Part shown: in pieces, positions 14,877 through 15,890 of the stretch
Layout: every line of letters starts with the position of its first letter
Numbering within the stretch: position 1 is the first letter of the stretch
Program-made: the position numbers and the translations under genes
NCBI GenBank assembly: GCA_958295695.1
Contig: OY282363.1
Location: 1,113,156 to 1,177,155 of the forward strand
Origin: an uncultured Alphaproteobacteria bacterium
GTDB taxonomy: Bacteria > Pseudomonadota > Alphaproteobacteria > SP197
Direction: 5' to 3'
Length of the DNA stretch: 64,000 nt
The notes under the pieces: model-generated
Database searches by the model: none
What the model saw: the letters and a program-made list of their open reading frames with translations, nothing else
Told to the model about the DNA's origin: nothing

Positions 14877-15890
14877 TCAGCCGCCGGCCGGGGCGGCCGC
14901 AAGGGCGCGTTCCAGCATGTCGAGGCGGTCGGAGCCGAAATGGAGCTTGCCCTCGAACAGGAAGGTCGGCACGCCGAAGACGGAACGTTCGATCGCCTCG
15001 GCGGTGTTGCGGGCGACGGCCGCCTTGTAGCCCTCGTCGGCCGCGATCCCGGCCATCGGCCGGGGGCCCAGCCCGGCCGCGTCGGCCATCCGCTGCAACC
15101 ACGCCGGATCGGTGATGTCGGCGCGTTCGGACCAGTAGCCCCGCATCACGGCCAGGACGAAAGCTTCGGCGCATCCCCGTTCGGCGGCGTAGACGAAGCA
15201 GCGTAGCGCGCGCGAGGGCCGCAGCGGGTAGTCCGGGCGCGGGTCGTGGACGAGGCCGTTCTCGCGGAAGCGGTCGCGCACGTCCCGTTCGTACCAGGCC
15301 ACGCGCGCCGGCGTCTGCTCCATGGGCCGCAGGCCGCCGATGGTCTCGATCAGGTTGGCGAGGTGGACGGGCCGCCAGAGGAGTTCGGCGCCGTACCGGC
15401 GGCAGAGCGCGCCGATGCGCGTCGCGGCGAGATAGCTCCAGGGGCTGTGCACGTCGAAGTAGAACGCGACCGGCGGCCGTTCGGGCCGGACGCGCGGGGC
15501 GGCCCGGCCATCGAGGAAGCGCTCGAGGTCGACGACCGCCCGCGTGTGCTCGCCCGTCATCACCTCGCGCCCGTCCTGCTCGAGGCGCACGGAGAAGACG
15601 ACCTTGCGGCCCGAGACGGCCGTCGCCTCGGCATGGACGTCGACCGGCCGGCCGGCGAAGGCCGGGCCCGTGTGGTCGACCGCCACCCGGACGCCGACGC
15701 CGGCCTCGCCCTCCTCGAGATAGGGATGGAGCAGCGGGGCGCAGGTCGCCTCGATCCACAGGATCAGCGTGACCGTGGCCACCGCCTCGACGCCGGCGTT
15801 GCCGACCGCCGCGGCCGTGTCCTCCGCGGTGGGGTCGAAGCCGAGCGTGTGGGCGAGGCCGAGGGGGACCGGGCGCATGGGCCGAACCAT
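14877..15890 (-). CDS. apparent fusion: hotdog-fold thioesterase (FlK-like) plus 2-hydroxychromene-2-carboxylate isomerase/DsbA-like domain
   Basis: N-terminal ~130 aa GNAGVEAVATVTLILWIEATCAPLL...VGVRVAVDHTGPAFAGRPVDVHAEATAVSGRKVVFSV matches the thioesterase superfamily. C-terminal ~200 aa VAFYFDVHSPWSYLA...GVPTFLFEGKLHFGSDRLDMLE matches the HCCA-isomerase/DsbA family. There is no stop between the domains. An internal GTG (MRPERPPVAFYFD) could alternatively start a separate isomerase. Confidence 0.6.
   Translation of the reverse strand: MVRPMRPVPLGLAHTLGFDPTAEDTAAAVGNAGVEAVATVTLILWIEATCAPLLHPYLEEGEAGVGVRVAVDHTGPAFAGRPVDVHAEATAVSGRKVVFSVRLEQDGREVMTGEHTRAVVDLERFLDGRAAPRVRPERPPVAFYFDVHSPWSYLAATRIGALCRRYGAELLWRPVHLANLIETIGGLRPMEQTPARVAWYERDVRDRFRENGLVHDPRPDYPLRPSRALRCFVYAAERGCAEAFVLAVMRGYWSERADITDPAWLQRMADAAGLGPRPMAGIAADEGYKAAVARNTAEAIERSVFGVPTFLFEGKLHFGSDRLDMLERALAAAPAGG

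Follow-up and report, generated by a model that had tools for sequence, protein, structure and literature searches.

A conserved fusion of an FlK-like thioesterase with an HCCA-isomerase/kappa-GST-like domain in uncultured Alphaproteobacteria, and a tentative proposal for its role in CoA-linked isomerisation

The locus and its two-domain gene

Our analysis concerns a 64,000-nucleotide stretch of contig OY282363.1 from an uncultured alphaproteobacterium (referred to below, at its full length, as the window), and within it a gene whose product is predicted to join an acyl-CoA thioesterase domain of the FlK family to a thioredoxin-fold domain related to 2-hydroxychromene-2-carboxylate (HCCA) isomerases and kappa-class glutathione S-transferases (GSTs). 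The gene is preceded by a gene for a tandem EctC-EctC bicupin and faces a gene for an EamA-family transporter (Table 1). The GC content of its three codon positions (0.76/0.52/0.94) matches the pattern of real genes in this window of 70.7% GC, the third-position value (GC3) of 0.94 being uniform along the open reading frame (ORF). Homologues open with MR(T/P)VP in the alignment, which makes Met5 (ATG at 15878) the likelier start than the ATG at 15890. An internal GTG start giving MRPERPPVAFYFD, considered in the preliminary description of this locus, is absent, residue V134 being encoded by GTC; no in-frame ATG, GTG or TTG is found between aa 112 and aa 146, and the next in-frame start codon, the GTG of V147, falls inside the active-site motif FDVHSPWS. 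Direct inspection of the protein sequence revealed no signal-peptide-like or hydrophobic export N-terminus. The gene product is one cytoplasmic polypeptide, a member of a conserved, experimentally uncharacterised two-domain family.

Table 1. The fusion gene, its parts and its immediate neighbours (positions in the window)
Feature	Position	Strand	Basis or remark
FlK-like thioesterase / kappa-GST (HCCA-isomerase)-like fusion gene	14877..15890	-	complete ORF, 337 aa, ATG start
N-terminal hotdog domain, FlK family, aa ~13-125	15516..15854	-	Pfam, PDB alignment, conservation, fold match
Inter-domain linker, aa ~126-138	15477..15515	-	alignment, model, codon check; no start codon inside
C-terminal thioredoxin-fold domain, HCCA isomerase / GST-kappa family, aa ~139-332	14895..15476	-	Pfam, fold, motifs
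Gap between EctC-EctC stop and fusion ATG, 55 bp	15891..15945	-	also synteny breakpoint relative to related loci
EctC-EctC bicupin, directly upstream of fusion	15946..16776 (or 16830)	-	two Ectoine_synth stretches
Rieske oxygenase, EctC-EctC module	17071-18234	-	
Two AstE/AspA-like deacylases, EctC-EctC module	18364-19503 and 19511-20614	+	
Convergent EamA-family transporter	13882..14760	+	conserved neighbour of the fusion, 20/33 loci

Conservation of the fusion architecture

Among 5.8 billion proteins searched there were 265 matches, the best 120 of which all combine PF22636 with PF01323 (53-71% identity, E<1e-114, 324-435 aa), and the architecture recurs in at least 120 protein clusters. When only the FlK half served as the query, an exhaustive HMMER scan extended the family to more distant fusions (down to 38% identity in that half) and also found stand-alone FlK-like proteins of ~131 aa (52-55% identity); unfused halves of both kinds exist in other genomes. 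The in-frame fusion of the preliminary description is borne out by one ORF, the lack of an internal start and the number of clusters, and the identical protein is present in two assemblies. The same description had called the fusion atypical, which does not hold within its own clade, as fused forms occur not only in all these clusters but in every ingroup subclade of a neighbour-joining tree of the DsbA-like halves. In this tree (calculated without bootstrap) the family forms a single clade separate from the outgroup (Zoogloea, Thauera and a metagenome-assembled genome (MAG) of Burkholderiaceae), with fused forms also in basal position and unfused forms nested, a pattern suggesting that the fusion is ancestral and that the FlK half was lost at least twice.

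The homologues are labelled '2-hydroxychromene-2-carboxylate isomerase/predicted thioesterase' by JGI and 'DsbA family protein' by NCBI, no NCBIfam model matches the fusion protein, and nothing on this architecture was found in the literature on the fusion or on its COG, Pfam and InterPro identifiers. The family is an uncharacterised combination of two known kinds of domains, conserved and already auto-annotated.

The N-terminal FlK-type domain

The Pfam profile of FlK (PF22636) matches aa 21-121 with an E-value of 2e-25 (89.3 bits, the cut-off being 27), and a sequence search of the PDB identified FlK (6e-11). In the AlphaFold2 model of the fusion protein (built from 22 homologues) the predicted local distance difference test (pLDDT) score exceeds 90 across most of aa 11-120, and Foldseek superimposed this half on FlK entries with template-modelling (TM) scores, normalised to the target, of 0.82-0.87 (0.87 for 3p3i). 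In FlK, catalysis is carried out by Thr42 and His76, and the acyl pocket is shaped by Glu50, Gly69 and Arg120 (PMC2903362). With the offset taken from the phmmer alignment, Thr42, Glu50, Gly69, His76 and Arg120 correspond to T39, E47, G66, H73 and R117, none of which varies among 22 close fusions and 19 diverse ones (except that the first may be Thr or Ser). The domain is predicted to be an FlK-type hotdog acyl-CoA thioesterase with an intact catalytic constellation.

FlK itself, the fluoroacetyl-CoA thioesterase of Streptomyces cattleya (PDB 3KV7, 3P3F), shows ~28-31% identity over ~125 residues and has in common with the window's domain the hotdog fold, the Thr42-His76 nucleophile/base pair and the residues Glu50, Gly69 and Arg120. 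Its hydrophobic lid (33-FAEFP-37, with Phe36 as the gate) aligns to G30-N-A-G-V34, in which Gly30 and Asn31 are invariant, and because the lid and gate are replaced, the domain should be regarded as a member of the FlK family rather than an orthologue of FlK. Moreover, FlK is a stand-alone protein of 139 aa, whereas the window's domain is fused and lacks a fluorometabolite context; as the lid differs as well, specificity for fluoroacetyl-CoA is not expected.

FlK-like domains were also found fused to other enzymes, namely an aromatic-amino-acid ammonia-lyase (P0161, 632 aa), an acyl-CoA dehydrogenase (P0239, 540 aa) and a GNAT acetyltransferase (P0270, 284 aa).

The linker and the C-terminal isomerase-like domain

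The two halves are joined by a short disordered linker. Its length is hypervariable among homologues (0 to ~90 extra residues), running from a few residues to about 90 that are rich in Pro, Ala and Ser, always in frame. The model has a mean pLDDT of 86.6 and a predicted TM-score (pTM) of 0.62, and only the linker (aa 128-136) falls below a pLDDT of 50. No PDB chain covering both halves was found by Foldseek.

The Pfam profile PF01323 (DSBA) matches aa 141-331 with an E-value of 2e-33 (116.2 bits against a cut-off of 25.6), so that both halves lie far above the curated Pfam cut-offs. The best sequence matches in the PDB are HCCA isomerases, 3fz5 (5e-24) and NahD (2imd, 6e-14), followed by kappa-class GSTs, and Foldseek aligned the C-terminal half with 2imd (TM 0.81), 3fz5 (TM 0.84) and GSTK1 (TM 0.75). 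The assignment of the two halves in the preliminary description, as an FlK-like thioesterase and a thioredoxin-fold domain of the HCCA-isomerase family, agrees with the Pfam profiles, the PDB matches and the model superposition.

The position of the CxxC motif of disulfide oxidoreductases is occupied by S149-P-W-S152, with S149 invariant and position 152 being Ser, or Cys in distant members. The catalytic centre of GSTK1 is S16xxS19 (PMC10295636). Ser16 of GSTK1 aligns with S149, and F305-G-V-P308 and G319-S-D-R322 align with the corresponding motifs of GSTK1 and NahD. In the structures of GSTK1, the cis-Pro loop FG[VL]P and the residues of G-[SN]-D-R presumably serve the binding of glutathione. 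Among the fusions, G319 is invariant and D321 nearly so, and positions 320 and 322 vary. As Ser-x-x-Ser replaces CxxC, the C-terminal half is predicted to act as an isomerase or transferase with the help of a thiol (glutathione), and not as a disulfide oxidoreductase, and the NCBI name 'DsbA family protein' is misleading for a protein with neither CxxC nor a signal-peptide-like N-terminus.

NahD (2IMD), a HCCA isomerase, and the Rhodobacter 'possible HCCA isomerase' 3FZ5 are 27-30% identical to the C-terminal half and share with it the thioredoxin-plus-helical-insert fold, the motif F-D-x-x-S-P-(F/W)-S, the FGVP loop and G-x-D-R. However, both are stand-alone proteins of ~200 aa, whereas the window's domain is fused to a thioesterase and its family is linked to CoA ligases; the substrate of NahD is a free bicyclic acid of naphthalene catabolism, and the fusion loci lack nah/dox genes. 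The aromatic catabolism invoked in the preliminary description has no counterpart in the genomic context, as no aromatic or naphthalene catabolic surroundings were seen at any locus examined and no nah/dox-type genes occur in the window or in ~90 related loci. The fusion is not an orthologue of NahD, and its context differs. GSTK1, also known as DsbA-L (1YZX, 3RPN, 1R4W in the PDB), has the same fold (TM 0.74-0.75) with ~21% identity, and its 'FGSDR' aligns with F318-G-S-D-R322 of the fusion; in contrast to the latter, it is a eukaryotic organellar conjugating enzyme, unfused and with no known CoA-ester substrate.

A precedent for chemistry on thioesters within the HCCA-isomerase/kappa-GST family is provided by the cinnamoyl isomerases (IPR014440, e.g. 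Sky27 and Kcn15) of type II polyketide synthase and non-ribosomal peptide synthetase clusters, which isomerise double bonds of thioester-bound polyenoyl chains (PMC12532209). They are likened to the fusion here by family and description, not by sequence, and differ from it in being actinobacterial, stand-alone enzymes of secondary metabolism with substrates bound to an acyl carrier protein (ACP) instead of CoA.

Genomic context of the family

A scan of one genome per species yielded ~80 loci, all from MAGs, mostly of Alphaproteobacteria/Rhodospirillaceae and Hyphomicrobiales/Aestuariivirga with a few of Gammaproteobacteria, and their neighbourhoods were compared by tblastn with a panel of neighbour proteins, together with Pfam and NCBIfam. 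Among the 33 distinct fusion loci, a PhyH-family dioxygenase gene (in most cases the immediate upstream gene, and often overlapping the fusion's start codon) lies within 10 kb in 20, a convergent EamA transporter gene also in 20, an AMP-forming acyl-CoA ligase gene in 11, and an EctC-EctC gene in one, that of the present genome.

In the arrangement designated G1, a block of PHP-like, short PhyH-like, ligase and TIM-barrel-like genes diverges from the PhyH and fusion genes, behind which lies the convergent EamA gene; a betaine-type ABC transporter, a Rieske oxygenase and a DIOX_N 2-oxoglutarate (2OG) oxygenase are encoded in the vicinity. Some G1 loci also contain, between the PhyH and fusion genes, a conserved ORF of ~104 aa without a Pfam match (L005 8994-9305, L010 9150-9464; homologues in L006, L009, L028 and L036). 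Two loci (L033, L034) keep the G1 context with a 200-aa DsbA-only gene, which overlaps the PhyH stop codon, in place of the fusion. In G2, genes for a xanthine-dehydrogenase-type molybdenum enzyme and a MoaD/ThiS-like protein precede PhyH and the fusion. The product of the ThiS-like gene (81 aa) was considered as a carrier that would bring acyl groups or sulfur to the thioesterase, an idea set aside, as PF02597 also covers MoaD and the gene sits behind the three subunits of the molybdenum enzyme.

G3 comprises ~40 loci of Aestuariivirga/Hyphomicrobiales with the order hutF-hutH-short-chain dehydrogenase/reductase (SDR)-AMP ligase-stand-alone DsbA-like gene (46-54% identity), in some cases followed by hutG. 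The unfused DsbA-like gene starts within 0-12 bp of the aligned end of the ligase gene or overlaps that gene, and in the relative L029 an FlK-DsbA fusion replaces both ligase and DsbA-like gene, again followed by hutG. These hut operons, with SDR, ligase and DsbA-like gene or fusion, span 4781-10606 in L040 and 6296-11799 in L029, with ~40 similar loci among L037-L079. Finally, in G4, which comprises the closest homologues with long linkers, polA and the ligase gene diverge from the fusion, hisA and hisF.

The ligases of G1 and G4, transcribed divergently beside the fusion, are orthologous (70-75% identity between the two classes), so that both classes pair the fusion with the same ligase. A second type of ligase lies directly upstream of the fusion in L035. 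The best solved relative of the partner ligase is feruloyl-CoA synthetase (5e-82), and that of the PhyH partner is MysH (6e-26), an N-dealkylating dioxygenase of mycosporine-like amino acids (PMC10666671). The likeness to MysH is a lead only, as no mycosporine genes were seen. NCBIfam naming gave no match for the PhyH protein, which is therefore not taken for EctD.

A tentative function in CoA-dependent isomerisation

We tentatively propose that the family carries out the thiol-assisted isomerisation of a CoA-activated unsaturated acid, followed by hydrolysis of the thioester, a function that we consider the likeliest of those discussed here, while stopping short of calling it probable. A small carboxylic acid, alpha,beta-unsaturated or otherwise electrophilic, would be converted to its CoA thioester by the partner AMP-forming ligase; the kappa-GST-like domain would then isomerise the thioester-activated intermediate by reversible addition of a thiol, the outcome being a cis/trans change or a ring-opening tautomerisation, and the tethered FlK domain would hydrolyse the product thioester to give the free acid and recycled CoA. 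In most genomes the gene would act beside the MysH-like PhyH Fe/2OG dioxygenase and the EamA transporter. This scheme of activation, isomerisation and release is suggested by the linkage to ligases, by fusion partners that handle unsaturated acyl groups and by the thioester precedent in the HCCA-isomerase family. As regards the fusion partners, the ammonia-lyase (P0161) and the acyl-CoA dehydrogenase (P0239) to which relatives of the FlK half are fused generate alpha,beta-unsaturated acyl groups, which hints at an unsaturated acyl substrate; the kinship of the partner ligase with feruloyl-CoA synthetase points the same way. NahD carries out such an isomerisation with a free acid, and the cinnamoyl isomerases do so with ACP thioesters.

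A similar logic is known from the chiral inversion of profens, which involves an acyl-CoA synthetase, 2-arylpropionyl/alpha-methylacyl-CoA epimerase and a thioesterase: formation of the CoA thioester makes the carboxylate isomerisable and a thioesterase releases the product, with an isomerase of an unrelated family.

Several observations weigh against this proposal. The members of the fusion family, which without exception come from MAGs, are as yet experimentally uncharacterised as to substrate, activity and glutathione dependence. The window lacks AMP-ligase, PhyH and ammonia-lyase genes, so the pathway cannot be reconstructed there; among the 33 fusion loci, PhyH is absent within 10 kb from 13 and the ligase from 22. 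MysH, the solved relative of the PhyH partner, acts on a free metabolite and not on a CoA ester, and the hut-type operons with ligase and DsbA-like gene lack the thioesterase, so that the three activities are not always together. Within the protein, two residues of the presumed glutathione site (Ser320 and Arg322) are variable, and at the pTM given above it is uncertain how the two domains are oriented to each other.

Alternative functions and the EctC-EctC neighbourhood

Or perhaps the protein serves in detoxification or proof-reading? In such a case the FlK half would hydrolyse a toxic or mis-activated acyl-CoA and the kappa-GST half would independently conjugate or reduce the same electrophile with glutathione, with no isomerisation involved. 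FlK is itself a self-protection thioesterase acting on fluoroacetyl-CoA (PMC2903362), GSTK1 is a conjugating/redox enzyme (PMC10295636), the conserved exporter-type EamA neighbour could expel the product, and the G4 context beside polA and hisAF resembles housekeeping. However, the DsbA-like relatives found directly behind a ligase in catabolic hut operons suggest a step of a pathway and not damage control, and the C-terminal half has isomerases as its nearest characterised relatives; we regard this alternative as unlikely, while worth keeping in mind.

Another explanation is offered by the neighbouring EctC-EctC gene, behind which the fusion could perform a dedicated step, with a CoA- or thiol-bound intermediate, of an EctC-EctC/Rieske/AstE pathway that would turn over an ectoine-like cyclic amidine or an N-acyl-diamino acid. 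The spacing of 55 bp between the two genes given in the preliminary description is correct, from the TGA to the ATG at 15890; both genes are on the same strand, no terminator-like or promoter-like site was found in the gap, and in the absence of such a terminator co-transcription is likely. The arrangement is kept in the second assembly (L001), which represents a near-identical strain with 99-100% protein identity. Nevertheless, EctC-EctC adjacency is confined to a single one of the 33 loci, and the downstream side of the fusion in the window retains the synteny of the PhyH-type G1 loci (EamA, an ABC ATPase with 60% identity to that of G1, an OpuAC remnant and a DIOX_N 2OG oxygenase), while the upstream side carries EctC-EctC, the Rieske oxygenase and the two divergent AstE/AspA-like deacylases where G1 has its PhyH/ligase block. 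The break falls exactly at the 55-bp gap, which on these grounds is a synteny breakpoint; in the closest relative with known context (71% identity), PhyH occupies the EctC-EctC slot, 36 bp upstream of the fusion. The fusion has been placed behind the EctC-EctC/Rieske/AstE module by rearrangement.

Conversely, the other EctC-EctC contexts examined lack FlK-DsbA. A contig of JGI 3300072015 carries two AstE genes diverging from a Rieske oxygenase gene, followed by six tandem EctC-EctC paralogues (259-283 aa each), and the combinations DIOX_N + EctC-EctC and Rieske/ligase/acyl-CoA dehydrogenase + EctC-EctC likewise occur without the fusion; in one genome of 8.7 Mb, members of the two families are 3.8 Mb apart. 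A DIOX_N 2OG oxygenase shared by the EctC-EctC and FlK-DsbA modules was considered as a link and rejected, as the oxygenases are paralogues with only 36% identity. No EctA- or EctB-type gene lies within ~10 kb of the fusion, nor is there an ect cluster; no PhyH, AMP-ligase, ammonia-lyase, hut or his genes are detectable in the 64 kb, and a search of the window for remnants of PhyH, ligase, TIM-barrel and permease genes revealed only the fragment of OpuAC and, at a distance of 27 kb, a TIM-barrel paralogue that is unrelated. A role in the EctC-EctC pathway is therefore quite improbable, and the window's fusion gene gives no basis for inferring a CoA step in that pathway. Of the suggestion in the preliminary description that the fusion points to a CoA- or thiol-linked step, the general part is supported by the recurrent AMP-forming acyl-CoA ligases and the conserved thioesterase and glutathione-site-like residues, and the part that would tie it to EctC-EctC in general is not.

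A third possibility is an acyl-glutathione route, in which the kappa-GST-like domain would move the acyl group from CoA to glutathione (or in reverse) and the hotdog domain would hydrolyse S-acyl-glutathione. Thiol cofactors or thioesters are bound by both halves, between which an intermediate could be passed on more easily thanks to the tether; however, no precedent was found in the kappa-GST/HCCA-isomerase family, and the residues that contact pantetheine and the acyl group in FlK are conserved, consistent with a CoA substrate, which makes this route very improbable. The remaining two explanations can practically be dismissed. That of a genuine periplasmic DsbA-type disulfide oxidoreductase, as the NCBI name and the DSBA match of Pfam would have it, fails on the SPWS in place of CxxC, the lack of an export signal and the fusion to a CoA thioesterase, and that of an artefact (a sequencing error joining two genes, or two polypeptides made from an internal start), to which the DsbA-only genes of L033/L034 and the 131-aa FlK-like proteins lend some colour, is excluded by the independent clusters with the same architecture, the identical protein in two assemblies, the lack of a start codon in or near the linker, the uniform GC3 and linkers that vary yet stay in frame.

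Wider implications

Returning to the proposed activation, isomerisation and release, the fixed pair of domains and the recurrent acyl-CoA ligase, MysH-like dioxygenase and transporter constitute a conserved module without an assigned reaction, widespread in uncultured marine and freshwater Alphaproteobacteria. We know of no gene that has been assigned to the bacterial cis-urocanate isomerase activity, for which the hut-operon relatives are a possible candidate. A bacterial 'cis-urocanic acid isomerase' is mentioned in PMC5988872 with reference to Hug et al. 1999. It could be speculated that the family supplies the catalytic core of a CoA-dependent shunt, so far undescribed, that activates, isomerises and releases acrylate-type acids and in which an enzyme of the kappa-GST fold works on acyl-CoA thioesters in primary catabolism, with the hut-operon members (ligase and DsbA-like gene, or FlK-DsbA fusion, between hutH and hutG) representing the cis-urocanate isomerase gene and the PhyH/EamA-linked members, including that of the window, serving the same purpose for another nitrogenous acid of marine or freshwater environments; we would call this extension distinctly improbable. 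If the scheme of activation, isomerisation and release itself is right, it would extend the chemistry of the kappa-GST/HCCA-isomerase family to CoA thioesters in central catabolism, correct the database name 'DsbA family protein' and provide a concrete candidate for orphan isomerase activities in histidine/urocanate and osmolyte turnover.

Further observations at the locus

On the downstream side of the fusion, the OpuAC substrate-binding gene is cut to residues 226-308 of 316 (11457-11705), and the ABC ATPase gene (11842-12873) is intact and apparently orphan, the permease of related loci being absent. A low-GC island at 10327-11300 (37-39% against ~71%) contains an ORF of 301 aa (10327-11232, + strand) with a sub-threshold match to tetratricopeptide repeats, and is probably a recent insertion into a decayed locus of a betaine-type ABC transporter; the low-GC insert (10400-11300) interrupts the stretch of G1 synteny. 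Comparison of L001 with the window revealed extra genes at two points of the locus (3726-4964 and 12075-14312 in L001, against 20615-20964 and 12874-13881 in the window), namely an AAA_14/DUF4143 gene and a RelE toxin module accompanied by small ORFs, which indicates recent indels around the cluster.

EctC-EctC proteins make up a large family of unassigned function (613 matches). In the ~295-bp spacer between the stop of the Rieske oxygenase gene and the start of EctC-EctC, an AT-rich perfect inverted repeat (AGAACCT-N12-AGGTTCT, 16931-16956, - strand) is followed by a T-rich run and could be a terminator or the binding site of a regulator.

At 6446-9950 and 25232-27302, genes for urease subunits adjoin that for a 2OG oxygenase, whose best solved relative is ethylene/succinate-forming-enzyme-like (2e-56), and genes for a double-DUF427 protein and an arginase-family protein are found further along, a combination that hints at metabolism of guanidino compounds or urea nitrogen near the locus.

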